In this document: positions 29,154 to 57,365 of the stretch, piece after piece | Numbering within the stretch: the first letter of the stretch is position 1 | How the letters are laid out: the number at the start of each line of letters is the position of its first letter | Assembly: GCA_963782945.1 (NCBI GenBank) | Contig: CAWALO010000033.1 | Location: forward strand, 194,014 to 258,013 | Length of the DNA: 64,000 nucleotides | Direction: 5' to 3' | Source of the DNA: an uncultured Bacteroidales bacterium | GTDB taxonomy: Bacteria; Bacteroidota; Bacteroidia; Bacteroidales; VadinHA17 | Notes under the pieces: model-generated | Seen by the model: the letters and a program-made list of their open reading frames with translations, nothing else | What the model was told of the DNA's origin: nothing | Databases searched by the model: none | Made by a program: the position numbers and the translations under genes

Positions 29154-29342
29154 ATGGGAAATCTTGGAGCTACAGAGATCATTTTAATTTTACTTGTTGT
29201 TGTTTTACTTTTCGGCGGAAGAAAGATACCTGAACTGATGAAAGGTATTGGACAGGGGATGAAGGAATTTAAGAAGGCCTCCAGAGTGGAAGATGATAAG
29301 GAGAAGATGAGCGCTGAGCCAAAAGAGGAAGAGAAAAAATAA
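29154..29342 (+). CDS. tatA: twin-arginine translocase subunit TatA/E
   Basis: [42 protein letters not shown]; ATG at 29154 preferred over the TTG-extended ORF. Confidence 0.85.
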
Positions 29343-33287: not shown

Positions 33288-34352
33288 ATGAAAAACATCT
33301 ACCTGGAGATTCTTGATCTGCAGTCATCCGTTTCCCCGCTGGCATTGGCCACAATTGTCAGAACGCAGGGTTCCACTCCCCAGAAGCCCGGATGTTCCGC
33401 ATTATTTGATGGAATGGGGCTTGTTACCGGCACCGTGGGAGGAGGCATTGTAGAAGGGAAAGTGCAAAAACTGGCAGCAGAGTCAATTGTATCAGGGAAT
33501 TCAGGAATTCATCATTTCAATCTGGGGAATGACATATCAAACACGGAGGAGGCTATCTGCGGTGGACAGATAGATATTCTTATTGACCTGAATATCAGTA
33601 ATTTCATGCCGGTATTTGAACAGATGAACCAGTCTCTCAAAAACCAGATTCCGGGGGTTTTGATTACTGAGATCACAGGATTAAAAGAGGCAAAAGCACT
33701 TATAGATCGTTTCTGGATCAGTGAAATTGCCGAACCATCTTTACCGGCAGATTTCATAGCAAGTATTGAACCTGAATTCAAAAAGCTGATCTCTGAAAAG
33801 AATCCCTCAGGTTTCCGCGAAATATCGATGGGTTTGGCAGATGAAGAACCATCCACCCTGTTTTTACTACAGCCTTTTTTTCCTCCTGATCAACTGATAA
33901 TAGCAGGAGCCGGACATATCGGCAGGGCACTGGCACATTTCGGAATGCTTCTGGATTTCGAGGTTACAGTAATTGATGACCGTCAGGAATTTGCAAATAA
34001 AGACAATATCCCTGATGCAGACCATATTATTGTGAGGAATATAGGCGATGCCATCAATGAACTGAAAAAAGCCGGTAACACCTATGTAGTTATCGTCACA
34101 AGAGGGCATAAGGATGATGCGTCCGCCCTCAGACCATGCATTGGAAAGGGGTTGGCATATATAGGAATGATAGGCAGTAAAAAAAAGGTTTCTGCTATGA
34201 GGATAAACTTCATAGAAAACGAATGGGCTACATATGCACAGTGGGATCAGATCCATGCACCGGTTGGGCTTCCTGTCAAGGCACAGACAGTTGAAGAAAT
34301 TGCTGTAAGTATCGCAGCGGAACTCATTCTGATAAGAAATAGCAAAAGGTAA
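33288..34352 (+). CDS. XdhC family molybdoenzyme maturation protein
   Basis: N-terminal XdhC/CoxI region (LATIVRTQGSTPQKPG) and C-terminal Rossmann-like IIAGAGHIGRAL. Confidence 0.8.
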   Translation: MKNIYLEILDLQSSVSPLALATIVRTQGSTPQKPGCSALFDGMGLVTGTVGGGIVEGKVQKLAAESIVSGNSGIHHFNLGNDISNTEEAICGGQIDILIDLNISNFMPVFEQMNQSLKNQIPGVLITEITGLKEAKALIDRFWISEIAEPSLPADFIASIEPEFKKLISEKNPSGFREISMGLADEEPSTLFLLQPFFPPDQLIIAGAGHIGRALAHFGMLLDFEVTVIDDRQEFANKDNIPDADHIIVRNIGDAINELKKAGNTYVVIVTRGHKDDASALRPCIGKGLAYIGMIGSKKKVSAMRINFIENEWATYAQWDQIHAPVGLPVKAQTVEEIAVSIAAELILIRNSKR

Positions 34353-34380
34353 GACGACTCACGATGTACGGCACACGGCA
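34353..34380. repeat. short heptanucleotide array, 4 units
   Basis: gacgact cacgatg tacggca cacggca, starting at the nt after the xdhC-like stop codon. Confidence 0.5.
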
Positions 34381-34395
34381 TAAATTAATTTTCAG

Positions 34396-34989
34396 ATGGG
34401 TGAGATCCGGAGTATAATACTGGCAGCAGGCGAATCAAAGCGCATGGGATTTCCTAAAATGCTTCTGAAGTTTAATGGGAAAACAATGATTGAAAAAGTT
34501 CTTGAAAATGTTGCAGAATCGGATTCAGATAGTATATTAGTGGTTCTTGGCGCCAGCATGGAAGTTTTGATAGACCTGGTCAGGAAATATGATGTAAAGT
34601 ATTGCTATAATAGTAATTACATGGACGGAATGCTTTCCTCTGTACAATGCGGGTTTAAAAATCTGCCTTCAGATACTGCGGCGACTATGGTTTTTCAGGG
34701 CGATCAGCCATTTATTACTCCGTCGGTTATCAATATGGTAATCGATGCATACAAAACATCCGGAAAGGGAATTGTTATTCCTGTTTATAAAGGGAAAAGA
34801 GGCCATCCTCTGCTGCTTGACAAAAAATATTCAGACCGGATCTACAGTCTTGATCCTTCAGAAGGATTACGTTCTATTATATACCTCAATTCATCCGATG
34901 TTCTGGAGGTTGAGACAGGCGAACCTGGTATTTTGAGAGATTTTGATACATATGACGATTATAAAGAGGAAATTAATCAAACATTATAG
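34396..34989 (+). CDS. MobA-like nucleotidyltransferase (molybdenum cofactor cytidylyltransferase MocA-like)
   Basis: ILAAGESKRMG N-terminal motif, 197 aa, located between xdhC-like and molybdoenzyme genes. Confidence 0.75.
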   Translation: MGEIRSIILAAGESKRMGFPKMLLKFNGKTMIEKVLENVAESDSDSILVVLGASMEVLIDLVRKYDVKYCYNSNYMDGMLSSVQCGFKNLPSDTAATMVFQGDQPFITPSVINMVIDAYKTSGKGIVIPVYKGKRGHPLLLDKKYSDRIYSLDPSEGLRSIIYLNSSDVLEVETGEPGILRDFDTYDDYKEEINQTL

Positions 34990-34991
34990 CT

Positions 34992-35468
34992 ATGCAAGAA
35001 ACAATCAGTTTTGAGTTAAACGGGAAAAAAACAGAGGCCCTGATTGATCCCACCGAAACACTCCTGTGGGTGTTGCGCAATCATTTCGGGCTCACGGGAA
35101 CCAAATATGGCTGTGGCATGGGATTTTGCGGATCATGTACGGTCCTCATTGACAATGAGGCAGTAAGATCATGCACCATCCCTGTTGGTGACGTAAAAGG
35201 TAAAAATGTTGTTACCATAGAAGGCCTGGCAAATAACGGAGAGCTGCATCCTGTTCAGAAGGCATTTATCGAACATGACGCCTTGCAGTGCGGTTATTGT
35301 ACCCCCGGCATGATAATGAATGCTGCAGGTCTCCTGCTGAAAAATCCTTCCCCCAATACAGATCAGATAAAGGAGGGAATGGAAAATAATTTCTGCCGTT
35401 GCGGTGCTCATGTTCGTATTGTTGCGGCTGTAGAGACTGCTGCTAAAGAAATGAAAGGAGGGAAATAA
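34992..35468 (+). CDS. (2Fe-2S)-binding small subunit of a xanthine dehydrogenase-family molybdoenzyme
   Basis: CGMGFCGSC plus CGYCTPG...CRCGAH cluster motifs; 158 aa; no signal peptide. Confidence 0.9.
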   Translation: MQETISFELNGKKTEALIDPTETLLWVLRNHFGLTGTKYGCGMGFCGSCTVLIDNEAVRSCTIPVGDVKGKNVVTIEGLANNGELHPVQKAFIEHDALQCGYCTPGMIMNAAGLLLKNPSPNTDQIKEGMENNFCRCGAHVRIVAAVETAAKEMKGGK

Positions 35469-35470
35469 TC

Positions 35471-37624
35471 ATGAAAAAAGATGAAACTGTGAATATAGCC
35501 TCAGCAACTGGCAAAAAGCGTCGCGGAATGCCGAGGCGTGATTTTTTCAAACTAATAGGAAGTGGAATTATTGTCTGTTTCATGCCAAGGTGTGCCAGCG
35601 ACGGAACTCCGCTGGCAGCTCCGCTGGAAAGAGATCTCACAAAGGATTACAATGCTTTCCTGCTTATAGGTGAGGATGGAACTGTAAACTGCTTTACCGG
35701 AAAAATTGAGATGGGTCAGGGAATTATCACATCACTGGTTCAGATGATGGCTGATGAACTGAATGTTCCGATTGAAAAAATTAAGCTTGTGATGGGAGAT
35801 ACCGACCTTTGTCCCTGGGATGGCGGTACCTGGGGTTCAACTACTACCAGGGAATTCGGACCATCCATGAGGGCTGCTTTAGCAGAAGGGAAAGGGGTGC
35901 TTCTTGAACTGGCATCGGAAAAGCTTAAGGTGCCGGTAAGTCAGCTTACCGTGAATGATGGTGTAATAACAGATACTGCTAATCCTGCCAATTCGGTCAC
36001 TTATGCCGAGCTTGCTAAAGGGAAGAAAATTGAGCGATTCCTCAAAGAAAAACCTTCTCCTGAAGACTATACGAAATATACGTTTGTTGGTAAATCCTAC
36101 CAGCGAATGGATGCAAAAGTGAAAGTTACCGGGGAAGCGAAATTTACAGGCGACTTGAAAGTGCCAGGGATGGTTTTTGCCCGTATCCTCAGACCTCCGT
36201 CGCATGGCGCAAAACTTACAACTGTTGATACATCCGGAGCTGAAAAGGTTGAAGGCGCAAAAGTGGTCAGGGATGGAGACCTTATAGCTGTACTGCACGA
36301 AAACCGTGACAAAGCTGATGAAGCGCTCATTAAGATAAAAGCGGATTATACTTATAATGAATTGCCTGTCAATGATAAGACTGTCTTCGAGTATATGCTG
36401 AAATCGGATTCATATGCAAATGTTGAGACGTCAAGTGGTGATCTTGAGGCAGGAAAAAAACTTTGCGATAAGACATTCGAAACAGTTGTTCATGATCCAT
36501 ATCTGGCTCATTCACCTATGGAAACTCATGCAGCTCTTGCACAATTTGAAGGAGGTAAAATGACTGTCTGGGCATCAACTCAAACGCCTTATCCTCTTCA
36601 GGACGAACTGGCAGGAGTATTGGCACTTCCTCTTGAGAAAGTCAGGGTAATTGTGCCCTTTGTCGGCGGAGGTTTTGGTGGCAAGAGCACAAACTATCAG
36701 GCTGTCGAAGCTGCAAAGCTGGCAAAGCTGAGTGGGAAACCTGTGATGGTTATGTGTACACGTGATGAAGAGTTTTTCAAGGATAATTTTCATCCGGCCG
36801 GGGTAATTACAATTAAATCTGGTATTGACAAGGAGGGACTGATAAAATACTGGGAATACGATACATATTACTGCGGCACAAGGGGCACTGAGATTCTTTA
36901 TGATGTCCCCAATCTTAAGTTTACAGATCACGACCGTAAGGAAAACGGGCCGCTTATACATCCCTTTGATACAGGGCCGTGGCGTGCTCCCAACAACAAC
37001 ACAAATACTTTCGCCAGAGAGATGCAGGTAGATCTCATGGCAGCAGCAGCAGGGATTGATCCTCTGGAATTTCGTCTTAAGAATCTTAAGGATGAGAAGA
37101 TGATAGAGGTACTGAAAAAAGTTGCTGATATGTTCGGATATAAGCCGGGTAAAGGTAAAGGTGGAAGAGGGGTTGGTATGGCAATAGGTACTGATGTTGA
37201 TTCGTTGGTGGCTCAGATGGCTGAAGTTGAGGTTGATAAAAAGAGTGGTAAGGTTAAGGTTTTGCGTATGGCCTGTGCACAGGATATGGGGCAATGCGTT
37301 AATCCTCAGGGAGCAACACTTCAGATGGAGGGATGTATGACTATGGGACTCGGATACACCCTTACGGAAGAGATTATCTATGAGGGAGGGAATATAATAA
37401 CAAGAGGATTTGATTCCTATGATATTCCAAAGTTCTCATGGCTGCCAAAAATAGATACCTTTATAATTCAAAGGCTAAATGAACCTCCGCATGGTGGGGG
37501 AGAACCAGCAATTATTACTGTCGGGGCAGTTGTTGGAAACGCCATTTTTAATGCAACGGGAGCACGGCTCACCAGAATGCCATTTACACCGGAAAGAGTC
37601 CTTGAGGCATTGAAAAAAGTATAG
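35471..37624 (+). CDS. molybdopterin-binding large subunit (IorB/aldehyde oxidoreductase-like), Tat signal
   Basis: PRRDFFKLIGSGIIVCF twin-arginine leader; GQG, FGGK and other XDH-family large-subunit motifs; 717 aa. Confidence 0.85.
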   Translation: MKKDETVNIASATGKKRRGMPRRDFFKLIGSGIIVCFMPRCASDGTPLAAPLERDLTKDYNAFLLIGEDGTVNCFTGKIEMGQGIITSLVQMMADELNVPIEKIKLVMGDTDLCPWDGGTWGSTTTREFGPSMRAALAEGKGVLLELASEKLKVPVSQLTVNDGVITDTANPANSVTYAELAKGKKIERFLKEKPSPEDYTKYTFVGKSYQRMDAKVKVTGEAKFTGDLKVPGMVFARILRPPSHGAKLTTVDTSGAEKVEGAKVVRDGDLIAVLHENRDKADEALIKIKADYTYNELPVNDKTVFEYMLKSDSYANVETSSGDLEAGKKLCDKTFETVVHDPYLAHSPMETHAALAQFEGGKMTVWASTQTPYPLQDELAGVLALPLEKVRVIVPFVGGGFGGKSTNYQAVEAAKLAKLSGKPVMVMCTRDEEFFKDNFHPAGVITIKSGIDKEGLIKYWEYDTYYCGTRGTEILYDVPNLKFTDHDRKENGPLIHPFDTGPWRAPNNNTNTFAREMQVDLMAAAAGIDPLEFRLKNLKDEKMIEVLKKVADMFGYKPGKGKGGRGVGMAIGTDVDSLVAQMAEVEVDKKSGKVKVLRMACAQDMGQCVNPQGATLQMEGCMTMGLGYTLTEEIIYEGGNIITRGFDSYDIPKFSWLPKIDTFIIQRLNEPPHGGGEPAIITVGAVVGNAIFNATGARLTRMPFTPERVLEALKKV

Positions 37625-37728
37625 GCGTCAGGCATCAGGCATCAGGCGTCAGGCGTCAGGCCACAGGGGAGATTGATTTATAAAAATTCCCCTGATACCT
37701 GTCGCCCGCCCCCTGACGCCATTTTTTT
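37624..37728. repeat. heptanucleotide array (6 units ggcgtca ggcatca ggcatca ggcgtca ggcgtca ggccaca) folding back on an inverted partial copy, followed by T7
   Basis: Right arm tcccctgatacctgtcgcccgccccctgacgcc (37688..37720) pairs with cagggga and ggcgtcagg of the left arm; ttttttt at 37722..37728; fills the whole gap between convergent genes. Confidence 0.8.
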
Positions 37729-38596
37729 AATAGAGATATTTTTTAAGGAGTTCAATTCCTTTCTTTATCTCTTCGCGGCCTGAAGATTCAATGCCATACC
37801 ATCCGCGGTATCCTGAGTCTCTGGCCAGTTTTATCATTTTTGCGGTAATCTCCTCTGTTGGCTGATTCCGGTAAGACATTCCTCCGGCATAAGGAAGCAT
37901 TTTCTGCAGATAGTCATAATTATCGAAATTATCAGACGGCCGGCGCCAGTCGGGATAACTTCCGAAATAGAGGTTGTCAACCTCCTTCAGAAGCGATACC
38001 ATCCAGTCAGCATCATTGGAGACTCCGCCGTGATTTTCGATCAGTACACTGATCTTTGCAGGAACCGCATATTCCATCATCATCTGATATGTCTCCGTTG
38101 CCCATTTAAGCGCTTCACCCTTTGAAACATTCTCCGGTCCCCGGCAGTTGGTCCTGATTGCATGACATCCAAGGTAATGTGCAGCATCGATCCACTTGCG
38201 GTGATTAATCTCAAACTGACGCCGTTCTTCCCTGGTTGAAGAACATCCATCGCCCTCATCGTCTACCATTATCAGAACCATTGTAACACCATTGTCTGCA
38301 GCGTTTTTCTTTAACTGTTTAAGATACCCTTCTGTGGTTACTTCAAAAAGAGTATTTACAAATTCAATACCATTCAGTCCAAAATCATTCCTTGCTATTT
38401 TAGCAAAATCAAGGGTTTTCCATTTGCCCGACTTCACTTCATCAACAAGAGCCCATTGGGCGAGTGAGATATCATCTTTGATCATACGGGCCGTGGGCCC
38501 TGTGAGGGATGACCCGATTACTGAGGGAGCAACAATGCCTGCTGCTCCCACTACAACCGATTTTTCGAGAAAATTTCTTCTTGTAATATTCTTCAT
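37727..38596 (-). CDS. xylose isomerase-like TIM-barrel protein (sugar phosphate isomerase/epimerase family), Tat signal
   Basis: MKNITRRNFLEKSVVVGAAGIVAP leader; family resemblance of the mature part (IENHGG motif). Confidence 0.75.
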   Translation of the reverse strand: MKNITRRNFLEKSVVVGAAGIVAPSVIGSSLTGPTARMIKDDISLAQWALVDEVKSGKWKTLDFAKIARNDFGLNGIEFVNTLFEVTTEGYLKQLKKNAADNGVTMVLIMVDDEGDGCSSTREERRQFEINHRKWIDAAHYLGCHAIRTNCRGPENVSKGEALKWATETYQMMMEYAVPAKISVLIENHGGVSNDADWMVSLLKEVDNLYFGSYPDWRRPSDNFDNYDYLQKMLPYAGGMSYRNQPTEEITAKMIKLARDSGYRGWYGIESSGREEIKKGIELLKKYLY

Positions 38597-38649
38597 TACT
38601 ATGAATTAATTATTCATTGGTATTTCGTAGTTTTCAATTAAAGCTGAGA

Positions 38650-40158
38650 TTAAAGCTCCCAGCCTTTGCGATATTCTCTCACAAGATATTTATTGGCATC
38701 AGGGATGTTTGTAATTTTCATTTCCTGGCTGTTGTACTGGACTTTTTTTCCAGCTCTCAATGCCACCGCGCCAAGCAGAATTGTCTCGGTAACCGGTCCT
38801 GCATAAATAAAACTTCCCGGTGACTGGGTTTTATTCCGGAAGGCGTTTATCCAGGTATCATTCCTGTCTTCCCGTTCCGATTCAGAGGTTGGCTTTTCAG
38901 GCAGAATCTTTTTATTGCCAACATATAAAACCGGTTTTTCACCTCTGAAATCACCAATGATCTTCCCTTTATCGCCGACGAACATAAGTCCTTCAGGTGC
39001 CAGCTCCTTATCTTCAGAGCGTAATTCGTCAGGGTTCATCGGTTTCATGCCTCCGTCATACCAGAAAAGATCAAAAGGACTCAGTTCTTTCTGAGCCGGG
39101 AACTTAAAGCGGACGATGCATGATAAAGGAAAAGCTACATCATTATGTACACTGGTTGAAACATGATTGATTATTGTACGTGTTGTGGTGGCGTATGACT
39201 CTGCACTTAATGCAGGAGTATTGATACCAAGAGTCAGGAACAGCGGAAACAGGCTGTAATGTCCCATATCTGCAATGCTGCCTGCACCAAAGTCGTACCA
39301 GCCGCGGAAGACATTATGGGTGTAATTGGGATGATAAGGACGGCCAGGTACTGGCCCGAGCCATAAATCCCAGTTGAAATCTTTCGGTACAGGTGGAGTA
39401 TCTGTCGGATTTGATTGCCATTGCGGCCAGACGGGTCTGTTAGACCAGTTGTGTATTTCCTTTAGTGTGCCAATCTGTCCCTCTGCGATCCACTTTTTAA
39501 TTACATCATATTCGGGCCTTTTACTCCATGCCAGAAGATGTGTGCTCAGACCGGTTTTCCTTGCAGTATCTATGGTAAGCTTTGCCTCATACATCCTGTT
39601 GGCAATTGGCTTATGCGTAACCACATGCTTACCTTTTTTCATTGATGCGACAGCAACAGTCGCATGAAGATGATCAGGGGTCATAATTTTAATAGCTGCT
39701 ATGTCGCTTTCTTTTTCAAGTAATTCGCGGAAATCTTCATATGACTTGCAACCTTTAAATGTTCCTGATGGCATTGTTTTTCCGTAATATTTCTGAACAA
39801 ACTCCTGTCCGATGTCCCTTCCGCCTGGAATTCCGCTGATTCCTTCTCCCCATGATTTATCGCCCAGAGCATCCCTGATATCATCACGTATTCCATTTAA
39901 AGACCAGTCGACATAATCTGTTGTGAATTTATTGGGATCACAGACAGCCACGATCTGGAGCGCCGGATTTTTTATAAGTTCAGTCATCTCTCTCATCCCC
40001 TGGGTGCCGCAGCCAATATAACCAAGTGTGAGTTTATCGCTTGGGGCAACATAGCCTGGTCCGCCAAGCACATGTCTGGGAATGACTGTAAATGCCACGG
40101 AAGCAGCGGCTGCTGAACCGAGGAATTCACGACGGTTAATCTTGTTTGATTTTGTCAT
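38650..40158 (-). CDS. Gfo/Idh/MocA family oxidoreductase, Tat signal
   Basis: KINRREFLGSAAAASVAF leader; Rossmann GYIGCGTQG; 502 aa. Confidence 0.8.
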   Translation of the reverse strand: MTKSNKINRREFLGSAAAASVAFTVIPRHVLGGPGYVAPSDKLTLGYIGCGTQGMREMTELIKNPALQIVAVCDPNKFTTDYVDWSLNGIRDDIRDALGDKSWGEGISGIPGGRDIGQEFVQKYYGKTMPSGTFKGCKSYEDFRELLEKESDIAAIKIMTPDHLHATVAVASMKKGKHVVTHKPIANRMYEAKLTIDTARKTGLSTHLLAWSKRPEYDVIKKWIAEGQIGTLKEIHNWSNRPVWPQWQSNPTDTPPVPKDFNWDLWLGPVPGRPYHPNYTHNVFRGWYDFGAGSIADMGHYSLFPLFLTLGINTPALSAESYATTTRTIINHVSTSVHNDVAFPLSCIVRFKFPAQKELSPFDLFWYDGGMKPMNPDELRSEDKELAPEGLMFVGDKGKIIGDFRGEKPVLYVGNKKILPEKPTSESEREDRNDTWINAFRNKTQSPGSFIYAGPVTETILLGAVALRAGKKVQYNSQEMKITNIPDANKYLVREYRKGWEL

Positions 40159-40239
40159 CTTACTGAAATAGGTTTATATTAATAAATTCTGTTATTTGAG
40201 GATAAATGGATAATTCAACATTGAGAATAGTGTATTATT

Positions 40240-40247
40240 CAAATGTA
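40240..40247 (-). promoter_or_regulatory. -7 box TACATTTG (minus strand) upstream of the Tat Gfo/Idh/MocA gene
   Basis: caaatgta on the plus strand, 82 nt upstream of ATG 40158. Confidence 0.4.
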
Positions 40248-40308
40248 CAAAAAAATAAGTTCATTAACTGAACGTGAATTGTTAACATATACGGCAGTTT
40301 AATTATTT

Positions 40309-40316
40309 TATATTTG
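40309..40316 (+). promoter_or_regulatory. distal -7 box TATATTTG, 264 nt upstream of the ManD-like gene
   Basis: Exact motif match; would give a long 5' leader or a separate short transcript. Confidence 0.3.
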
Positions 40317-40523
40317 CAGGTACAATATTGAATCGGAAAACCGGCTATAATGTAAAGATCTGTTTCAAACCTGAAAATACCAATAAGGAAGTTGTCAGCA
40401 CTGGAATAATGCTCAGTCGAAAAAGTACTCAGGGAATCCTGGATTCAAAAAGGGAATAGAACTTGAATCAATTCCGGATACTTTCGTAATAAGTGGGTAA
40501 TAGGACTTTAGAAAACTTATAAA

Positions 40524-40531
40524 TATATTTG
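40524..40531 (+). promoter_or_regulatory. proximal -7 box TATATTTG upstream of the ManD-like gene
   Basis: Exact motif match 49 nt upstream of ATG 40580. Confidence 0.45.
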
Positions 40532-40579
40532 TTAAATACATCATTCAATAAAAAGCACTTCCTTAAATTACTTTCAAAA

Positions 40580-41941
40580 ATGAAAAACCCTGAAAATAAA
40601 TTCAAAACCAGCCGTCGTGATGCTATGAAGCTTATTGCAGCCGGCGGATCCGCCGGACTTCTTGGTATGCTTGGCAGCCCGCTCGCTATGGCCGAAAAAT
40701 ATGAAGCTCCAGCCTATGCAAAAGGAATGGCTCCTGTTAAGATTAAAAGTGTGAAAGCTATTGCTACAGCACCAGAGGGTATAAACCTTATTGTTGTAAA
40801 AGTTGAGACCACTGAGCCCGGATTATATGGACTGGGTTGTGCAACTTTCACTCAGAGGGCTGAAGTAGTAGTTACGGCAATTGATAAATATCTGAACGAT
40901 TTCTGTGTTGGCAGGGATGTTGACAATATTGAAGATATGTGGCAGAACGTATATGTAAGTTCTTACTGGCGCAATGGAGGGGTTTTGAACAATGCAATAA
41001 GCGGGCTTGATCAGGCATTGTGGGATATCAAGGGAAAAAGAGCAGCTATGCCGGTTTACCAGTTGCTTGGTGGCAAATCGAGATTTGCCGTTCAATGTTA
41101 TACTCATGCAAGCGGGAGAACCAATGAAGAGGTGATTGCTGATGTCCAGAAATATATGGCGATGGGATATCAGCATATCAGGATCCAGCTTGGAGGATAT
41201 GGCAGTGTTGGGGCACTGGGAAAGAATCCTGCCTTCCGGGATGCAGGGTTTGGAATGGAGACAGATGACTTCATGGACCAGCGGGCATATCTGAATGGAG
41301 TTCCGAAAATGTTTGCGGCTGTGCGCAAAGCCTGTGGAGACAAAGTTGAGCTGCTTCACGATATCCATGAGCGTGTCGAGCCTCTGGATGCCATAAATCT
41401 TATCAAGAGGCTGGAGGAGTATAATCCTTTTTTCATTGAGGACCCTTTCTCTCCTGAGAATATGGAATGGTTTAAACAGCTCCGGATTTCAACTTCAGTC
41501 CCTATTGCCATGGGAGAATTGTTCAATAACATAAATGAGTTCAAAGTCCCGATGGTTAACCAGTGGTTCGATTTTATAAGGGTTCATGTTTCCCAGATAG
41601 GAGGTATAACTCCGGCAATGAAGATAGCACGTCTGGGGGAGTGGTTCAATATCAGAACTGCATGGCACGGCCCGGGGGATGTCTCGCCTGTCGGACATGC
41701 TGCCAACTGTCACATGGACCTGGCCGTTTGGAACTTCGGAATACAGGAAGCGGTCCGGTTCTCTGAAAAACTTCAGACTATCTTTTCAGGGTGTCCTACT
41801 ATGAATAAAGATTTCATGTCAATTAATGAGGTTCCGGGACTTGGTGTAGATATAAACGAGAAGGAGGCTGCAAAATATCCGATTGGTACAAAATCAAGAT
41901 GGCAGGTAAGGAAGAATGATGGTACTGTCATAAGACCTTAA
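40580..41941 (+). CDS. enolase-superfamily dehydratase of the D-mannonate dehydratase (ManD)/galactonate dehydratase type, Tat signal
   Basis: ATG 40580: MKNPENKFKTSRRDAMKLIAAGGSAGLLGMLGSPLAMA-EK; mature part starts like ManD (VKIKSVKAIATAP) and has LHDIHER, FIEDP, AMGELF metal-ligand motifs. Confidence 0.8.
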   Translation: MKNPENKFKTSRRDAMKLIAAGGSAGLLGMLGSPLAMAEKYEAPAYAKGMAPVKIKSVKAIATAPEGINLIVVKVETTEPGLYGLGCATFTQRAEVVVTAIDKYLNDFCVGRDVDNIEDMWQNVYVSSYWRNGGVLNNAISGLDQALWDIKGKRAAMPVYQLLGGKSRFAVQCYTHASGRTNEEVIADVQKYMAMGYQHIRIQLGGYGSVGALGKNPAFRDAGFGMETDDFMDQRAYLNGVPKMFAAVRKACGDKVELLHDIHERVEPLDAINLIKRLEEYNPFFIEDPFSPENMEWFKQLRISTSVPIAMGELFNNINEFKVPMVNQWFDFIRVHVSQIGGITPAMKIARLGEWFNIRTAWHGPGDVSPVGHAANCHMDLAVWNFGIQEAVRFSEKLQTIFSGCPTMNKDFMSINEVPGLGVDINEKEAAKYPIGTKSRWQVRKNDGTVIRP

Positions 41942-41954
41942 GAAAAATATCTGA

Positions 41955-43106
41955 ATGAAAAACAACAGAAGGGAATTCATCAGGAAGAGCACCGCTATGG
42001 CTGCTCTGTCAGTTGCAGGATTAAGTCCTGGAGCATCAGAATTGTTGGGCAATTCTCATAATCAGGGCATAGCAGGTGTCAGTGGATCGCCATCAAAGGA
42101 ATATATCCAGGATGCCGGAATCAAAATGTGTTTTGCCTATTTTGGCGGTATGGAAGCAGAGCAGCGTAAAGTTCAGTTTGGCAAGCAGCTGAATGTCCTC
42201 GGTGCTGTTGGAGGTATCGATACAAGAATGGTTTCTCTGCCAAATGCACAACCATGGGATTTTGAAGCAGTGTCTGCGGTTAAAAATGCATGGGATAAGA
42301 CCGGACTGAAGCTCGAAGTCATTGAGGGCCCTCCGGCTTTATCTGAAAAGACCAAGCTGGGTATGAAAGAGAGGGATGAAGAGATATCCAACTTCATCAC
42401 CTTCATGAAAAATCTCTCCAGGGTTGGAATTGATACAGTATGTTACAACTGGATGCCGGTAATAAGCTGGGCCCGCACAACCAACGATCGTCCGGGGCGT
42501 GGCGGGGCACTGATGACTGCATTCGACTACGAAGATATTAAGGATCAGTCACCGACAAAGTATGGTGAAGTTTCAAAAGAGAGCCTCTGGAAAAACCTGG
42601 AATATTTTCTGAAAGCTGTTGTCCCTGAGGCAGAGAAGTATGGTATCAGGCTGGCGATGCATCCGGACGATCCGCAGGTTGACAGCATAAGAGGTATTTC
42701 AAGGATCATGACTACGGCTGATGCTTTCAGGAGAATGGCTGCGATATACCCGAGTCCATATAACGGAATTACAATGTGCCAGGGCAATTTTTCGCTTATG
42801 GGAGAGGATATTCCGGCCCTCGTCAGGGATTTTGGAAGCAGGAATCTTATCCATTTTGTCCATTTCAGAAACGTAAGGGGTGGAAAGACAAACTTTGTTG
42901 AGACCTTTCATGATGAAGGCCAGATAGATATGTATGCTGCCATGAAAGCATATATCGGCATTGGTTTCAGAGGCCCTTTACGGCCCGATCATGTTCCAAC
43001 GATGGCCGGTGACAGTAATGAACGGCCAGGTTACAGCGCTCTGGGAAGCCTTTATGCAGCAGGCTATATAAGGGGACTTATTGAGGCCGTTGCCAAAAAC
43101 GGTTAA
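41955..43106 (+). CDS. UxuA-type mannonate dehydratase homologue, Tat signal
   Basis: MKNNRREFIRKSTAMAALSVAGLS leader; CYNWMPVISWART, RLAMHPDDPQ, MCQGN, RPDHV, PGYSALG blocks align by eye with E. coli UxuA blocks. Confidence 0.8.
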   Translation: MKNNRREFIRKSTAMAALSVAGLSPGASELLGNSHNQGIAGVSGSPSKEYIQDAGIKMCFAYFGGMEAEQRKVQFGKQLNVLGAVGGIDTRMVSLPNAQPWDFEAVSAVKNAWDKTGLKLEVIEGPPALSEKTKLGMKERDEEISNFITFMKNLSRVGIDTVCYNWMPVISWARTTNDRPGRGGALMTAFDYEDIKDQSPTKYGEVSKESLWKNLEYFLKAVVPEAEKYGIRLAMHPDDPQVDSIRGISRIMTTADAFRRMAAIYPSPYNGITMCQGNFSLMGEDIPALVRDFGSRNLIHFVHFRNVRGGKTNFVETFHDEGQIDMYAAMKAYIGIGFRGPLRPDHVPTMAGDSNERPGYSALGSLYAAGYIRGLIEAVAKNG

Positions 43107-43178
43107 AAAACTCTTCTGGTTAGTTAATATGCAAGATAACCAGTAAGGCATCGTACCATTTAATTCAATACTATATTA

Positions 43179-44138
43179 ATGAAAAAAATAATTTATTTAT
43201 TATCAGGACTAACAATTGCAGCTATGCCATTAATGAAATTTCCACAAACAGAGATCTCCAACGGATTAATTCAGGCAAAGATCTATCTCCCTGATGCCAA
43301 AGAAGGATATTACCAGGGAACCAGGTTTGACTGGTCGGGCAATATGCCAAGCCTTAAATTTGCAGGACACGAATATTTCGGACAGTGGTTCACCACCTAC
43401 AGTCCGGAGATCCACGATGTTATAATGGGACCTGTGGAGGAGTTTACGGCACTCGATTACCCGGAAACAAAATCCGGAGAAAGTTTTGTCAAGATAGGAG
43501 TAGGCGTTCTTACTAAACCGGATAACGAGCCATATGCATTTGCAAGGTTATACCCTGTTGTGAACAGGGGCAAATGGGATGTTAAACAGGAGCCTGATCA
43601 GGTATTGTTTTCACATGTGCTCAATGACAAGGCTTACTCATATCGGTACGAAAAATGTGTTCAGCTTGTAAAGGGAAAACCTGAGTTGCTCCTTAGTCAT
43701 ACATTAAAAAATACAGGTAACAAGGCAATTGAAACAAGTGTTTATGATCATAATTTTTTCGTAATTGATAACCAGCCGGTTGGACCTGGTTATTCAATAA
43801 CATTCCCGTTTGATATCAAAGGAACAGGACAGGGAATAGGAGAACTCGCTGAAATAAAGGGGAAACAGATCCTGTTCCTTAGAAATGTGAACAACGGCGA
43901 GAATGTCTTCTGCAGTCCGCTTGAGGGGTTCAATGCTACTCCAGGTGATTACGACATCAGAATTGAAAACAAGATTGCAGGTGCAGGAGTGCGGATTACA
44001 TGCGACCAGCCAATTCAAAAGCTTAACTTCTGGTGTTGTTATACAACATTGTGCCCCGAGCCTTATATCAGGATTAAGGTTGATCCGGGTAGAGAATTCA
44101 GCTGGAAGATAAGATATGAGTTCTATACGTTGAAATAG
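43179..44138 (+). CDS. secreted hypothetical protein (possibly mutarotase-like beta-sandwich)
   Basis: Sec-type signal MKKIIYLLSGLTIAAMPL; no recognisable catalytic motif; same strand and 72 nt after the UxuA-like gene. Confidence 0.5.
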   Translation: MKKIIYLLSGLTIAAMPLMKFPQTEISNGLIQAKIYLPDAKEGYYQGTRFDWSGNMPSLKFAGHEYFGQWFTTYSPEIHDVIMGPVEEFTALDYPETKSGESFVKIGVGVLTKPDNEPYAFARLYPVVNRGKWDVKQEPDQVLFSHVLNDKAYSYRYEKCVQLVKGKPELLLSHTLKNTGNKAIETSVYDHNFFVIDNQPVGPGYSITFPFDIKGTGQGIGELAEIKGKQILFLRNVNNGENVFCSPLEGFNATPGDYDIRIENKIAGAGVRITCDQPIQKLNFWCCYTTLCPEPYIRIKVDPGREFSWKIRYEFYTLK

Positions 44139-44143
44139 GTTTG

Positions 44144-44165
44144 GGGTCATGCCATGGCATGACCC
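44144..44165. terminator. 22-bp perfect palindrome gggtcatgccatggcatgaccc (third copy of the 22240 element)
   Basis: Identical to the core of the 22240..22267 palindrome; between convergent genes ending at 44138 (+) and 44172 (-). Confidence 0.55.
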
Positions 44166-44171
44166 TACATA

Positions 44172-44771
44172 TTATAATTCTTCAATTAGAAGGTTACGCC
44201 ATTTAACTCTGATTCCACCTCCCGAATGTATTTGAAGGGCTATTGATCCGTTGCCCTGACCGATCTTTGCGTCAGAGAAATCTACCATGGACTGACCATT
44301 GAGCCAGGTCTGAACCCTGTCGCCAACAACACGGATCCTCAATGTATTCCACTCACCGGGTTTAAGGATATTCTCTTTATCATCATCAATCTGTTTAAGC
44401 CATTCCCTGCCGTAAGATTCATATATTCCGCCAGTATCATGCCCTTTGGGAGCCACTTCACACTGCCATCCTGATATTTTTGTACCTTCAATTGTAGAAC
44501 GGAAGAATACACCGCTGTTTCCGTCAGCCTCCTGAAGAAACTCCAGAGTCAGGTCAAAGTTTTTGTAGAATTTTTCAGTCGCCAGATACCCATACTCCTT
44601 ATCCGGACCACTTTCGCAAACCAGTAGCCCATTTTCAACAAACCACTTTTCGGTTCCATATATCTTCCAGCCAGTCAGGTCTTTTCCGTTAAAGAGTGAC
44701 TGTTTTTTTGAAGGAGTTGTAAAACCTGAGAGTAGAATCAGAACAAGAATTGAAAGAAAGATTTTTTTCAT
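44172..44771 (-). CDS. DUF1080 (3-keto-disaccharide hydrolase family) protein, Sec signal
   Basis: LFNGKDLTGWKIYG...WFVENGLL N-terminal motif and C-terminal IALQIH...WRNLLIEEL typical of DUF1080. Confidence 0.8.
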   Translation of the reverse strand: MKKIFLSILVLILLSGFTTPSKKQSLFNGKDLTGWKIYGTEKWFVENGLLVCESGPDKEYGYLATEKFYKNFDLTLEFLQEADGNSGVFFRSTIEGTKISGWQCEVAPKGHDTGGIYESYGREWLKQIDDDKENILKPGEWNTLRIRVVGDRVQTWLNGQSMVDFSDAKIGQGNGSIALQIHSGGGIRVKWRNLLIEEL

Positions 44772-44815
44772 AATATAAAGGATTTATTAAATATTTGTAA
44801 TTTAGTTTGATTGAC

Positions 44816-45736
44816 TTAATGTATCACATACTGCCTGAGGTAATTCCGGCTTTGGATGAGTGCTGTTTTTCTGTTCTCAACAGACCCTTCAAAAGATTTA
44901 TCCTCCACTTCGATACAGGCTGAACCATTATAGCCAACCTCATACAATGCAGAAAAGAATTTCCCCCATTCTATATCACCCAGACCCGGAATTTTCGGTG
45001 TATGCAGGTTGAGTGGCGTTGTCAGGATTCCTACATCATTTATTCTATCCTTCAATACCCTGGCATCTTTCAGGTGTACATGAAAGATGCGATCCCTGAA
45101 CTCAAAAACTGGTTTCACATAATCCATCATCTGCCATATCAGGTGAGACGGATCATAATTCAGTCCGAAATTCTTTGAAGGAATTGCTTCAAACATCCTT
45201 CTCCAGATTGCCGGAGAATGAGCCAGATTATTACCCGAAGGCCATTCATCCCTGGTAAAGAACATGGGGCAGTTCTCAATGGCTATTTTAATTTTCCTCT
45301 GCTCAGCATATTGCACTATGGGAGGCCATAACTCCATGAATGTTTGGAAATTGTCATCATCATGCCTCGCAGGGTCGGCACCAATAAAAGTATTAATGAT
45401 ACCCAGATCCAGTCTCACGGCAGCATCAATAACTTTCTTTATATGATCGATATAGAATTCAGATTTAACCTTATCCGGATGGAGCGGATTGGGATAATAT
45501 CCAAGCCCTGAAACAGTTATTTTTTTCTGAGCAAGTTTGTTTTTAATCCTGTTGAGTTCATCATCATCCAGTGACGCAACATCAATATGCGTTACACCTG
45601 CATACTTTCGATCAGCTTTACCTGATGGCCAGCACATCAGCTCCACACAGGCAAAACCGTTTTCAGCAGCAAAATCGATGACTTCATCGAATGTCAGATC
45701 TCCTAATATTGCGCTTACAAAACCAAGTTGAATCAT
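44816..45736 (-). CDS. xylose isomerase-like TIM-barrel protein (sugar phosphate isomerase/epimerase family), no signal peptide
   Basis: MIQLGFVSAILGDLTFDEVIDFAAENGF..., IAIENCP, HVHLKD motifs. Confidence 0.75.
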   Translation of the reverse strand: MIQLGFVSAILGDLTFDEVIDFAAENGFACVELMCWPSGKADRKYAGVTHIDVASLDDDELNRIKNKLAQKKITVSGLGYYPNPLHPDKVKSEFYIDHIKKVIDAAVRLDLGIINTFIGADPARHDDDNFQTFMELWPPIVQYAEQRKIKIAIENCPMFFTRDEWPSGNNLAHSPAIWRRMFEAIPSKNFGLNYDPSHLIWQMMDYVKPVFEFRDRIFHVHLKDARVLKDRINDVGILTTPLNLHTPKIPGLGDIEWGKFFSALYEVGYNGSACIEVEDKSFEGSVENRKTALIQSRNYLRQYVIH

Positions 45737-45832: not shown

Positions 45833-45898
45833 GCCGGAAGCCCGAAGCCGGAAGCCGGAAGCCTGCTGCCTGCTGCCTGCTGCCTGAAGCCTGAAGCC
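45833..45898. repeat. degenerate heptanucleotide array, 9.4 units
   Basis: gccggaa gcccgaa gccggaa gccggaa gcctgct gcctgct gcctgct gcctgaa gcctgaa gcc; last nt is part of the stop codon of the 45898..46872 gene. Confidence 0.9.
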
Positions 45899-46872
45899 TA
45901 CTTCACCTCCGTCCTGACACCTGTTGTAATTGCCACATTCTTCCTCCATTCATATTTAGAATCTTTCGCGAACCTGAGAAGAACGTCGTAAGTGCCAGGA
46001 GAACAGCAATTTGCCACGGTAATATTTTCGTAACTTATTGTTTCAAGATTTTTAATAGGTTCAGGTTTGCCTGTCTGTTTCAAGGCCGTTCCTGCAGGGT
46101 ATAGATGCATTGCTTTAACATCCGGGCTGGAACCGGTGTAGACAATTCCGCCGGCATTCAGATTGACAGCTACCTTATAGCTCATGTCTGGTTTCAGCTG
46201 GAAGTTTTCAAGCCATACTTTGTGGGTTTGGGATGATATTGCAATAGATATCAGTACGTCATAGGTACCTGGTTTAATTTTGCCTTTTGTTTTGCCATCA
46301 CTTTTGTCGGGTGTGACAGGTTTGTCACGCTTTCCCTGTTCATAGAAGGTTGGGATACCGAAGTAGACATCCTGTATTGTATGGGATTTGCATCTGTTTA
46401 CTTCAGATTCATACTGGCTAAGTCCATTAAGTGATGCCTGTTTTTCTTCAAGGTTGATCTGGTAATCATAAAGAGTAACAGACACAGTTGTTTTAGTTTT
46501 AGGCTTTATTAAGATATTGCCGGCAATAAAGCTCAGTAATCCGGGGCTTCCTGACAGCTTGAAATTAAGCATTAGATCGTAGGTGCCCGGAGCAGCTCCC
46601 TGCATCTTAACCTCTTTACCCGAACTCAGCAGTTTAAATTCCGAACTTGCAATAAGATCACCAAGAGCCCTGATGTTAACCGTTAAAGGAGATGTTTTAT
46701 CACCTTCATTCATTGCAGCATAGCTTTGCTGAATCCAGACCTGGTTCCAGCAACGTTCAGTTTTTACGTTAATGCCATTTTTAAGCTTGTAGACATAGTT
46801 TGATACAGGCTGAGCCTGAATGGCGAATAACAGCACGAGATGAAGAACCAAGATTGAAATTATGTTTTTCAT
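45898..46872 (-). CDS. secreted hypothetical protein with three PGTYD-containing repeats
   Basis: Signal peptide; PGTYDLML (aa 95), PGTYDVLI (aa 201), PGTYDVLL (aa 292). Confidence 0.55.
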   Translation of the reverse strand: MKNIISILVLHLVLLFAIQAQPVSNYVYKLKNGINVKTERCWNQVWIQQSYAAMNEGDKTSPLTVNIRALGDLIASSEFKLLSSGKEVKMQGAAPGTYDLMLNFKLSGSPGLLSFIAGNILIKPKTKTTVSVTLYDYQINLEEKQASLNGLSQYESEVNRCKSHTIQDVYFGIPTFYEQGKRDKPVTPDKSDGKTKGKIKPGTYDVLISIAISSQTHKVWLENFQLKPDMSYKVAVNLNAGGIVYTGSSPDVKAMHLYPAGTALKQTGKPEPIKNLETISYENITVANCCSPGTYDVLLRFAKDSKYEWRKNVAITTGVRTEVK

Positions 46873-54629: not shown

Positions 54630-55649
54630 ATGGAAACTGAAAATACTATAAATAAGAATAAAAGACCTGAATGGATGGAGATTATCTCACGGTACAATAT
54701 ACCAGATCCGGTCAAAAGCTGGTGGCAGATAATTAATTCAGTCGGCCCCTATATAATCCTCTGGATTCTAATGGTAAAAACCATAGGAATATCTTACTGG
54801 CTTACATTGCTATTGTCTGTATTTGCGGCCGGTTTTATGATCAGGACGTTTATTATCTTTCATGATTGCGGACATGGCTCATTTTTTAAATCAAAAAGAT
54901 TAAACACGGTTGTGGGAATCATAACAGGGCTTATGGTATACACTCCTTATCACAGATGGCACAAGGAGCACAAGATACATCACCAGACAGTTGGCAATCT
55001 GGATAAGCGCGGTATTGGAGATGTTACAACACTTACCGTAGAGGAATATTCTAAAATGACTAAGTGGCAGAAATTTGGTTACAGGTTTTACCGGAATCCT
55101 TTTTTCCTTTTCGGCATTGCTCCGATCTTGCTGTTCACTATTCTACTGCGATTCACCAAAAAGGATATGTCAGCAAAGGAAAAACTTTATATTCATTTAT
55201 CGAACCTTGCACTTGCTGCTGCAATTACATTGCTTATACTGGTAATCGGCTGGAAGACATTTCTATTGATCCAGCTGCCAATACTTTATATTGCCACAGT
55301 ACATGGCGTATGGTTGTTTTATGTTCAGCACCAGTACAGGCATGTGAAATGGACTGAAACTGAAGGATGGGATTACATGACTATCGCCTTAAACGGAAGC
55401 TCTCTGTTCAAACTGCCGGCACTGCTCAACTGGTTTACCGGCAATATTGGCTATCATCATATTCATCACCTTAGCCCGCTCATCCCGAACTATAATCTTA
55501 AACGGTGCCATAATGAGAACTCGATCTTCCAGCAGGTCAAACCGCTCACTTTCTTCACTGCATTCGAGTCGCTCTTTTTAAGGCTATGGGATGAAAAGAG
55601 ACAGATGCTCATCAAGTTCAGTGAGATGCAACGGGTGAATACTATTTAA
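54630..55649 (+). CDS. membrane fatty acid desaturase
   Basis: Three His boxes: HDCGHG, HRWHKEHKIHH, HHIHHL. Confidence 0.85.
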   Translation: METENTINKNKRPEWMEIISRYNIPDPVKSWWQIINSVGPYIILWILMVKTIGISYWLTLLLSVFAAGFMIRTFIIFHDCGHGSFFKSKRLNTVVGIITGLMVYTPYHRWHKEHKIHHQTVGNLDKRGIGDVTTLTVEEYSKMTKWQKFGYRFYRNPFFLFGIAPILLFTILLRFTKKDMSAKEKLYIHLSNLALAAAITLLILVIGWKTFLLIQLPILYIATVHGVWLFYVQHQYRHVKWTETEGWDYMTIALNGSSLFKLPALLNWFTGNIGYHHIHHLSPLIPNYNLKRCHNENSIFQQVKPLTFFTAFESLFLRLWDEKRQMLIKFSEMQRVNTI

Positions 55650-56475: not shown

Positions 56476-56589
56476 AGTTTTTGCATTTCAAATGAGGTTG
56501 AACAATCGTAAGTGGACGAAAATTACTTAAAAGTAGTAAAAGTATTTGAGAAACTTTTTTTTAATTGAGCAATTGCAGAAATGAGGGAT

Positions 56590-56624
56590 GGTGCTGGGTT
56601 CTTGGTGCTGGGTTCTGGGTGAGT
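56590..56624. repeat. degenerate heptanucleotide array, 5 units
   Basis: ggtgctg ggttctt ggtgctg ggttctg ggtgagt; same unit family as 60987..61042. Confidence 0.8.
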
Positions 56625-56638
56625 AAAGTTAGTGAATT

Positions 56639-56662
56639 CCCCCTTTGAAGGGGGCAAGGGGG
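56639..56662. repeat. C5-TTTGAA-G5-CAA-G5 module
   Basis: ccccc tttgaa ggggg caa ggggg; same architecture as 16028..16051. Confidence 0.8.
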
Positions 56663-56703
56663 ATGTTTTTCTGGATCAATGTTCAATGTTACTAACCAAA
56701 GTT

Positions 56704-56729
56704 CCCCTCCTTGGAGGGGTTAGGGGTGG
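56704..56729. repeat. CCCCTCC-TT-GGAGGGG-TTA-GGGGTGG module
   Basis: The first two blocks are exact reverse complements; a third G-rich block follows, as in the other two modules. Confidence 0.75.
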
Positions 56730-56739
56730 TTTAAAAGTT

Positions 56740-57213: not shown

Positions 57214-57365
57214 TATGCAAATGTTACATGTTTCTTTAAGAATAATTGTTAATTTAGGGTTAATGTATTGTTAATGTGAGAATTGTACCCAGTACCTTGT
57301 TTTCAAGTAAGGATGCCCTCTTTGTTTAATATTTATATTATCTTTTGAATTCAAATACTACCGCC

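Follow-up and report, generated by a model that had tools for sequence, protein, structure and literature searches.

Predicted export of ManD- and UxuA-type dehydratases in a Bacteroidales gene cluster suggests a periplasmic acid-sugar route in Bacteroidota

Introduction

Textbooks place acid-sugar dehydratases of the ManD, UxuA, and DgoD types in the cytoplasm. Why, then, do a ManD-type and a UxuA-type protein in a 64,000-nucleotide stretch of DNA from an uncultured Bacteroidales bacterium (the window, taken at its full length) both begin with twin-arginine translocation (Tat) leaders, and what do the genes around them contribute? The two lie in a cluster of seven genes, at 37727 to 45736, that also encodes a Gfo/Idh/MocA oxidoreductase, two xylose-isomerase-like TIM barrels, a DUF1080 protein, and a protein with a predicted mutarotase-like fold. 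An earlier note on this DNA had proposed that sugar oxidation and acid dehydration were moved here into the periplasm, with all seven genes acting as one pathway. The first part of that proposal is supported by conserved leaders, intact ManD catalytic residues, and conserved UxuA sequence blocks; the single seven-gene pathway is not supported. On balance we lean, with modest confidence, toward a two-module model, in which a relative of an oxidative 3-keto-glycoside system lies side by side with a ManD-UxuA-mutarotase-like operon that would serve a periplasmic acid-sugar route.

All seven open reading frames (ORFs) were recovered where the earlier note had placed them, and its family assignments were borne out by Pfam and NCBIfam profile searches; solved homologues were taken from the PDB. 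One genome per species was scanned for relatives of the Tat-leader ManD (Tat-ManD), and of the 480 stretches encoding them the 80 best loci were analyzed (individual relatives' loci bear labels from L005 to L089). ORFs in these loci were called and clustered, and a gene within six genes of ManD was counted as a neighbor. All 80 loci belong to Bacteroidota and represent the orders Bacteroidales, Cytophagales, Chitinophagales, and Sphingobacteriales, with Fibrisoma, Larkinella, Daejeonella, Parapedobacter, and Chryseolinea as cultured carriers.

Families and active sites of the two dehydratases

The ManD-type protein (40580 to 41941, plus strand; 453 amino acids) is a member of the enolase superfamily in which both the N-terminal capping domain (MR_MLE_N, PF02746, 71.7 bits) and the C-terminal barrel domain (MR_MLE_C, PF13378, 148 bits) are present. 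It is about 57% identical to solved ManD-subgroup proteins, with PDB matches to 3t6c, 3tw9, and 4ihc at an E value of about 1e-131. The sequence of the Novosphingobium enzyme NaManD was checked against PDB 2qjj and 4k1w and then aligned with 204 leader-bearing ManD sequences; Arg147, Asp210, His212, Glu236, Glu262, Arg283, His312, and Glu339 are invariant in the resulting set of 205 sequences. In NaManD numbering, as reportedly assigned by Rakus et al. (2007), Asp210, Glu236, and Glu262 are the metal ligands, His212 the acid, and Arg147 with a tyrosine the base pair. The loop tyrosine, in a GGYG motif, is present in 204 of 205 sequences and stands 6 residues after the arginine, as in 3t6c, 3tw9, and 4ihc, compared with 12 residues in NaManD. 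The window protein thus shares with the subgroup (NaManD 2qjj, 3t6c, 3tw9, and 4ihc) the two-domain MR_MLE fold, the metal ligands, His212, and the Arg147/Tyr pair. Described members of the subgroup are cytoplasmic. Unlike NaManD-type enzymes, the window ManD has a predicted cleavable Tat leader of about 38 residues followed by a linker of about 10, and the neighbors of Tat-ManD are exported partners and SusC/D rather than cytoplasmic glucuronate genes.

The UxuA-type protein follows directly (41955 to 43106, plus strand; 383 amino acids; PF03786, 306.2 bits against a cutoff of 23.7). It passes the PRK03906 subfamily model NF003027 (259.7 bits; cutoff, 191) and falls short of the TIGR00695 equivalog (187.1 bits; cutoff, 199.55). 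PF03786 spans its mature region, as in UxuA of Escherichia coli and Streptococcus suis, and the HPDDP, NGITMC, HxRNV, RPDH, and PGY blocks align with the S. suis structure 3ban (E value, 3e-57). Unlike known UxuA, it has a Tat leader and an N-terminal extension of about 55 residues, the canonical domain beginning near residue 56, and it is paired with a ManD-type enzyme and RraA-like proteins, not with UxaC or UxuB. Judged from these comparisons, the fold and chemistry of both proteins appear secure; their exact substrates do not, and gluconate or mannonate would be the nearest precedents only.

Could the exported proteins have drifted to another reaction, such as epimerization, cycloisomerization, or a lyase reaction on an acidic glycan fragment, so that their names mislead? 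The ManD protein scores below both curated NCBIfam cutoffs and the UxuA protein below TIGR00695, the substrate-gating loop in the 150s to 180s of Tat-ManD differs from that of NaManD, several other uncharacterized Tat enolase families co-occur with it, and functional divergence is a familiar feature of the enolase superfamily. We nevertheless consider such drift very unlikely, given the invariance of the full ManD-subgroup catalytic residue set, the identity of about 57% to solved ManD-subgroup proteins, and the UxuA score above the PRK03906 subfamily cutoff.

Conservation and translation of the export leaders

N-terminal peptides alone were compared with the Tat signal model TIGR01409 (TAT_signal_seq; cutoff, 16.7 bits). 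Each of the four twin-arginine leaders reported in the earlier note exceeds the cutoff: the Tat-leader TIM barrel scores 17.3 bits, the Gfo-type protein 18.3, ManD 23.1, and UxuA 19.8. The three N-termini that it had described as two Sec leaders and one leaderless TIM barrel do not match the model. A twin arginine followed by a hydrophobic stretch occurs in 7 of 51 nonoverlapping ORFs of the window, and five of these are consecutive genes, from 35471 to 43106; the four adjacent Tat genes noted before are thus part of a run that is one gene longer.

The ManD leader covers approximately residues 1 to 38 and ends in an AxA site (AMA/EK). A mechanically called ORF opens at the TTG at 40529, and the supported start is the ATG at 40580, because 118 of 120 homologues are about 453 amino acids long and begin with MKN. 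The 120 best ManD homologues, nearly all of 452 to 454 amino acids, cover the whole query, and 118 carry the twin arginine within the first 30 residues. Translation from the internal methionine (GMAPVKI), the other start that had been considered, cannot apply, since this residue is a leucine in many orthologues (GLAPVKI or GLPPVKI). The UxuA leader is likewise present in 109 of 120 homologues, and the 11 exceptions are gene calls that start inside the same leader or linker. Comparison of orthologous genes from the fetched loci placed a fraction of 0.47 (ManD) and 0.46 (UxuA) of the nucleotide differences in the leaders at third codon positions, where untranslated DNA would give one third, and synonymous changes are rarer in these leader segments than in the mature parts. 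This codon pattern fits a translated, loosely constrained signal peptide.

The other leaders of the cluster behave similarly. That of the Tat-leader TIM barrel is kept in all five other cluster members, which are Bacteroidales-type loci; that of the Gfo-type protein, which lines up with the beginning of the BT_2158 model, is kept in 10 loci; and those of the DUF1080 protein and the family of 43179 to 44138 are conserved as well. The leaderless TIM barrel has no leader in the window or in eight orthologues. Across the four orders the twin arginine, the hydrophobic stretch, and the AxA site are kept and the remainder of the leader varies freely. On this pattern, we regard export of ManD and UxuA as very likely, and a TatA/E translocase component encoded in the window (29154 to 29342, plus strand; PF02416, 59.9 bits) suits it. 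One might suppose instead that the N-terminal extensions fail to act as export signals and that the enzymes stay in the cytoplasm or on the cytoplasmic face of the membrane; in keeping with that supposition, the 64-kb window has TatA alone and no tatC. The persistence of motif, hydrophobic stretch, and AxA site over four orders, the scores above the TIGR01409 cutoff, the Sec leaders of co-located partner proteins, and the acceptance of the relatives BT2158 and Zymomonas glucose-fructose oxidoreductase (GFOR) as Tat substrates (PMC8121099) make this extremely unlikely.

In a neighbor-joining tree without support values, built with representatives at 50% identity, about nine further leader-bearing clusters fall within the ManD subgroup. 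Every Tat-ManD representative falls on the 3t6c-like side, where leaderless representatives are intermingled, and the half containing NaManD has no Tat-bearing representative. The tree hints at several gains or losses of the leader.

Two loci show further leader arrangements. In L032, a protein of the enolase family ENc (1980 to 3347, plus strand) starts with a stretch that is almost the same as the leader and linker of ManD (..QRRNTIKMLGIGSASGLLGLFGS...YAKGMAP), continues as ENc after it, and adjoins two ManD-family ORFs; this could be either leader exchange between neighboring paralogues or an assembly chimera. In L014, a Prolixibacteraceae metagenome-assembled genome, a leaderless 331-amino-acid UxuA paralogue and a Tat-UxuA (8884 to 9879 and 12376 to 13530, both plus strand) flank Tat-ManD and a mutarotase-like gene; having both forms in one locus, this genome presumably does not hold redundant copies of one function.

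A mutarotase-like protein beside the dehydratases

The gene after UxuA (43179 to 44138, plus strand) encodes a Sec-leader protein with no match in Pfam or NCBIfam. It has 4,773 homologues, and among the 120 matches listed all are annotated as hypothetical proteins and none has a Pfam domain. An AlphaFold2 model built from 33 homologues (pLDDT, 82; pTM, 0.83) was compared with the PDB by Foldseek. The top 16 matches are aldose 1-epimerases or galactose mutarotases (best match 3nre, E value 4e-12; TM scores, 0.49 to 0.60). The structure check called for in the earlier note therefore returned an aldose 1-epimerase-type fold, and the protein has, by this model, a galactose-mutarotase-like beta-sandwich. 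Invariant His and Glu residues are present in the family. A family of more than 4,700 proteins without a Pfam domain has gained a fold-based, mutarotase-like lead.

Gene neighborhoods of Tat-ManD in relatives

The mutarotase-like gene is also the most frequent companion of Tat-ManD in the families counted, adjoining it in 30 of the 80 loci and in three orders. Two Tat-leader enolase-superfamily families, ENa (26 loci) and ENb (17), SusC and SusD (21 each), an MFS transporter (17), a Sec-leader RraA-like protein (13), Tat-UxuA (12), and a PQQ dehydrogenase with a cytochrome c domain (11) follow. Profile searches confirmed as partners a PQQ dehydrogenase of the glucose/quinate/shikimate type with cytochrome c, a DGOK kinase, a KDPG aldolase, SBF and MFS transporters, and RraA-like proteins. 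Some Tat-UxuA genes have no ManD nearby and adjoin RraA-like, Tat-enolase, and DUF362 genes instead. A faint SGL match near Tat-UxuA in L087 to L089, a candidate lactonase, looks like a Sec-leader Reg_prop-type beta-propeller and was not used.

The clearest of these arrangements is found in Fibrisoma montanum (L070), where the order is LacI, Tat-enolase, SusC, SusD, Tat-ManD, Tat-galactonate dehydratase, mutarotase-like protein, PQQ/cytochrome c dehydrogenase, DGOK, KDPG aldolase, and MFS. The galactonate dehydratase passes the equivalog model NF010624 (436 bits; cutoff, 311); the MFS protein is nearest to the galactonate transporter model, at 240 bits against a cutoff of 395. Throughout the relatives' loci the DGOK kinase and the KDPG aldolase are leaderless. 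The enzymes with leaders are those that need only a metal or a bound cofactor, and the ATP-dependent kinase and the aldolase for its phosphorylated product are those without. This distribution fits a split pathway, in which anomerization, oxidation, and dehydration would take place outside the cytoplasmic membrane and import would come after them. The idea of a shift to the periplasm is strengthened by these other genomes, which place a Sec-leader PQQ dehydrogenase, the mutarotase-like protein, and Tat dehydratases ahead of MFS and leaderless DgoK and KDPG aldolase.

In its gene content, the L070-like arrangement resembles the De Ley-Doudoroff pathway of E. coli (DgoT, DgoD, DgoK, and DgoA), with counterparts (a galactonate dehydratase, DGOK, a KDPG-type aldolase, and an ACS-type MFS) clustered with Tat-ManD. 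It differs in that the dehydratase of the relatives has a Tat leader, so that transport would come after dehydration; the window itself has none of the kinase, aldolase, or transporter of that pathway. PQQ glucose dehydrogenase of Pseudomonas and Gluconobacter oxidizes aldoses outside the cytoplasm. As in our model, these systems and Zymomonas GFOR oxidize the aldose to the aldonolactone outside the cytoplasm, yet all three organisms take up the aldonate or ketoaldonate before a cytoplasmic enzyme dehydrates it, whereas here the dehydratase seems to be exported. Zymomonas GFOR is Tat exported and periplasmic and carries bound NADP (PMC8121099).

In Larkinella (L061, L063, L066, and L068; approximately 11600 to 12840, plus strand), a Tat-leader purple-acid-phosphatase-like metallophosphoesterase stands directly after Tat-ManD, preceded by a run of SusC, SusD, mutarotase-like protein, PQQ dehydrogenase, and ManD.

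Flanking genes and the 3-keto-glycoside system

On both sides of the dehydratase operon lie genes of a different kind. The Gfo/Idh/MocA oxidoreductase (38650 to 40158, minus strand; 502 amino acids; PF01408 and PF19051) finds its best NCBIfam model in NF058561 (BT_2158_fam), at 295.2 bits against an equivalog cutoff of 750; by score it is a homologue, not an equivalog, of the BT_2158 family. Its best PDB matches, 8tdf and 8tdh at about 200 bits, are structures that we presume to come from the 2024 Nature study of the BT2156-BT2159 pathway (Nasseri et al. 2024, Nature 631:199). Next to it is the Tat-leader xylose-isomerase-like TIM barrel (37727 to 38596, minus strand; 289 amino acids; PF01261, 54.5 bits; best PDB match 4ovx, E value 2e-44). 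On the far side are the Sec-leader DUF1080 protein of the 3-keto-disaccharide hydrolase family (44172 to 44771, minus strand; 199 amino acids; PF06439, 142.9 bits; PDB 4jqt, with weak matches to 8tda and 8rr2) and the leaderless xylose-isomerase-like TIM barrel (44816 to 45736, minus strand; 306 amino acids; PF01261, 150.7 bits), which weakly matches IolE and the 2-hydroxy-3-keto-glucal hydratase 8ro4. A further Sec-leader protein without a Pfam match (45898 to 46872, minus strand; 324 amino acids) opens the minus-strand run to which the leaderless TIM barrel and DUF1080 genes belong and is syntenic in eight loci at 65 to 83% identity.

The BT2156-BT2159 system of Bacteroides thetaiotaomicron, which degrades disaccharides via 3-keto intermediates in the periplasm, consists of a TIM barrel, a signal-peptide 3-keto-disaccharide hydrolase of the DUF1080 family, and two Gfo-type enzymes, one of them the Tat-leader dehydrogenase BT2158 (Liu et al. 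2021, PMC8121099). It shares with the window a Tat-leader Gfo/Idh/MocA dehydrogenase, a signal-peptide DUF1080 protein, and xylose-isomerase-like TIM barrels, so that the flanking genes, taken as module 1, resemble a relative of this oxidative 3-keto-glycoside system. In the window, however, the SusR regulator is absent and the dehydratase operon stands between two divergent pairs of these genes; the described BT2156-BT2159 system includes no dehydratases.

The earlier note had joined the two sets into one integrated pathway, in which the Gfo, TIM barrel, and DUF1080 proteins would oxidize and cleave a glycoside and the product would feed ManD and UxuA. The genes are indeed tightly packed and divergent, their order is the same in L006 to L009, L013, L027, and L059, the Gfo-type protein is the sole oxidoreductase within the seven-gene cluster, and Zymomonas forms gluconolactone in its periplasm with GFOR, an enzyme from that superfamily (PMC8121099). 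The distribution of the genes speaks against such integration. The window-type Gfo is found in 10 of the 80 loci, DUF1080 in 9, the leaderless TIM barrel in 8, and the Tat-leader TIM barrel in 5, and these neighbors are confined to one Bacteroidales lineage: they stand in Bacteroidales-type loci, with none from the three other named orders and one Gfo locus unclassified. Within the same 80 loci, UxuA accompanies ManD in the 12 already mentioned. Moreover, the Gfo protein is closest to the C3-oxidizing BT2158-type enzymes, whose products are 3-keto sugars and not acids. Dehydration of such a keto sugar by ManD, which the earlier note had allowed, is chemically unlikely because enolase-superfamily chemistry is established to need a carboxylate substrate.

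A relic between the two halves points the same way. In the close relatives L006, L007, L009, and L059, Gfo and ManD are separated by an intact DUF362 gene. Of that gene the window retains, by DNA alignment with these relatives, only the 3' end, at 40399 to 40500 (plus strand), where the last 33 codons and the stop are in frame and read HWNNAQSKKYSGNPGFKKGIELESIPDTFVISG before the stop; the L009 counterpart reads ...HEHWNNAQSKQYSGNLGFKKGIELVSIPDTLVKNSK. To judge from this alignment, the gene that once parted the two halves is deleted in this genome, and since only its 3' end is left, the halves of the cluster would have become neighbors by rearrangement. Taken together, we consider the integrated pathway unlikely. 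Module 2 of the two-module model, the ManD-UxuA-mutarotase-like operon, appears, by its gene neighborhoods, to be part of a set of exported acid-sugar enzymes that is widespread in Bacteroidota.

A putative periplasmic acid-sugar route

According to the two-module model, ManD (with Mg2+) and UxuA (with Mn2+ or Fe2+) would fold, oligomerize, and take up their metal in the cytoplasm before export by Tat; Tat rather than Sec would be used because the exported proteins are folded, metal-loaded oligomers, as established Tat biology suggests. In the periplasm, an aldose from imported glycans would be anomerized by the mutarotase-like protein and oxidized at C1 by an enzyme with a bound cofactor. That enzyme would be the PQQ/cytochrome c dehydrogenase in other genomes, and candidates here are the Gfo-type enzyme and an adjacent Tat-leader molybdoenzyme. 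The exported ManD-type or UxuA-type enzyme would then dehydrate the aldonate to a 2-keto-3-deoxy acid, which would be imported (by MFS or SBF transporters in other genomes) and passed to an ATP-dependent kinase and a KDPG-type aldolase. The sequence data show the leaders with their conservation and translation, the intact ManD active site, the conserved UxuA blocks, and the gene neighborhoods, and the structure model gives the mutarotase-like fold; that the proteins are actually exported, which substrates they use, which enzyme serves as oxidant here, and which way transport runs are inferred.

The adjacent molybdoenzyme is encoded by a plus-strand operon at 33288 to 37624, comprising an XdhC-like factor, a MobA/MocA-like nucleotidyltransferase, and the [2Fe-2S] subunit and Tat-leader molybdopterin subunit of a xanthine-dehydrogenase-family enzyme (34992 to 37624; MoCoBD_1 and MoCoBD_2). 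In 6 ManD loci the molybdopterin subunit is matched over its full length upstream of the cluster, in 4 others it is matched in part, and in L086 a full-length match adjoins Tat-UxuA; its leader has the twin arginine and does not match TIGR01409. It may be a candidate periplasmic oxidant of an aldehyde or aldose.

Several points weigh against the proposed route. A transporter, a kinase, an aldolase, and a PQQ dehydrogenase are all absent from the window cluster, and the pathway is pieced together from other genomes; the 80 loci are phylogenetically redundant closest relatives and reduce to 45 groups at 90% identity. ManD lies below both the NF043051 equivalog cutoff (393.8 against 550 bits) and the NF011654 (PRK15072) subfamily cutoff (385.2 against 430). 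Its nearest solved relatives are reportedly low-efficiency gluconate dehydratases (Wichelecki et al. 2014), and its true substrate may therefore be something else. The mutarotase-like fold is also found in noncatalytic domains, and we identified no lactonase. If the MFS protein imports the aldonate itself, periplasmic dehydration would be pointless.

Rather than acids made on site, the exported dehydratases could scavenge preformed sugar acids, either free aldonates or aldonic-acid-terminated oligosaccharides, taken up through SusC/D and generated by lytic polysaccharide monooxygenases or by the periplasmic oxidases of other microbes; exported RraA-like proteins may cleave the resulting 2-keto-3-deoxy acid, still in the periplasm, to pyruvate and an aldehyde. 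SusC/D pairs with ECF sigma and FecR genes adjoin Tat-ManD in 21 loci, genes for Sec-leader RraA-like proteins lie beside those for Tat-ManD, Tat-UxuA, and further Tat enolases, with one also in the window, and many loci lack any dehydrogenase, all of which would suit scavenging. We consider it quite unlikely, however: we identified no glycosidase with specificity for oligosaccharides ending in an aldonic acid, aldolase models give the RraA-like proteins weak scores (46 to 71 bits, all below cutoff), and the PQQ dehydrogenase and mutarotase-like genes of several loci favor on-site oxidation.

A broader form of the periplasmic route, which we also think unlikely though conceivable, is that Bacteroidota run the whole ATP- and NAD-free stretch of sugar-acid metabolism in the periplasm, from anomerization and oxidation by PQQ, Gfo-type, or molybdenum enzymes through Tat dehydratases and even RraA-like aldol cleavage to pyruvate and an aldehyde. 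Dedicated SusC/D loci may, in that case, target aldonic-acid-terminated oligosaccharides.

Other features of the window

The earlier note had seen no kinase, KDPG aldolase, transporter, SusC/D pair, or regulator in the cluster, which holds for 37.7 to 45.7 kb; a SusC/SusD pair was also not among the window ORFs inspected. Despite this bare cluster, a second exported set lies at 55.6 to 61.0 kb (55642 to 60981). Its Sec-leader RraA-like protein of class II aldolase fold (55642 to 56475, minus strand; PF03737, 74.4 bits) matches CHA aldolase/oxaloacetate decarboxylase models weakly and is 78% identical to the RraA-like gene near Tat-UxuA in L086. The Tat-leader GHL6/GH42-like protein (57345 to 59657, plus strand; PF14871 and PF02449), whose leader scores 17.2 bits on TIGR01409, is syntenic within 10 kb of ManD in L059, L017, and L008. 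The second Tat-leader enolase-superfamily protein (59698 to 60981, plus strand; 427 amino acids; PF13378, 170.8 bits) has a twin arginine with a hydrophobic stretch after it and no TIGR01409 match, and orthologues 78 to 80% identical stand near ManD in L013, L017, and L059. Taken as a pair, the GHL6 and second enolase genes lie within 10 kb of ManD in L059, L017/L005, and L013.

The GH26 lipoprotein and TatA noted nearby are both real in the window. The suggested link between GH26 and a mannose theme found no syntenic support, with one short fragment match in the 80 loci.

Scans for sigma-70 promoters and terminators gave the same counts as shuffled sequence, and Rfam had no match in the 420 nucleotides upstream of ManD. 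The element TATATTTG at approximately 40307 to 40314 (plus strand), about 265 nucleotides upstream of the ManD start, fits the Bacteroidetes -7 consensus TAnnTTTG; such a putative promoter would imply a long leader RNA.

Implications

Neither the enzyme families, nor the Tat pathway, nor the flanking 3-keto-glycoside system is new. Systematic export of ManD-, UxuA-, and DgoD-type dehydratases, together with recurring exported partners, is apparently undescribed. The earlier note knew of no described periplasmic ManD or UxuA, in agreement with our full-text search of the literature, which, with incomplete coverage, turned up no report of export for ManD, UxuA, or galactonate dehydratase. Pathway reconstruction tools and the annotation of polysaccharide utilization loci (PULs) assume that these dehydratases are cytoplasmic. 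If the reading of a whole periplasmic stretch were true, many PUL genes annotated as cytoplasmic monosaccharide enzymes would be periplasmic. The question can be tested in cultured carriers, namely, Fibrisoma montanum HYT19, Larkinella spp., Daejeonella rubra DSM 24536, and Parapedobacter lycopersici. If hundreds of Bacteroidota genomes do export these enzymes, they would join the known Tat examples of metal loading in the cytoplasm before export, and membrane transport would fall after dehydration. Oxidation could then couple to the respiratory chain, and the compound imported would be a 2-keto-3-deoxy acid, which few competitors could use.

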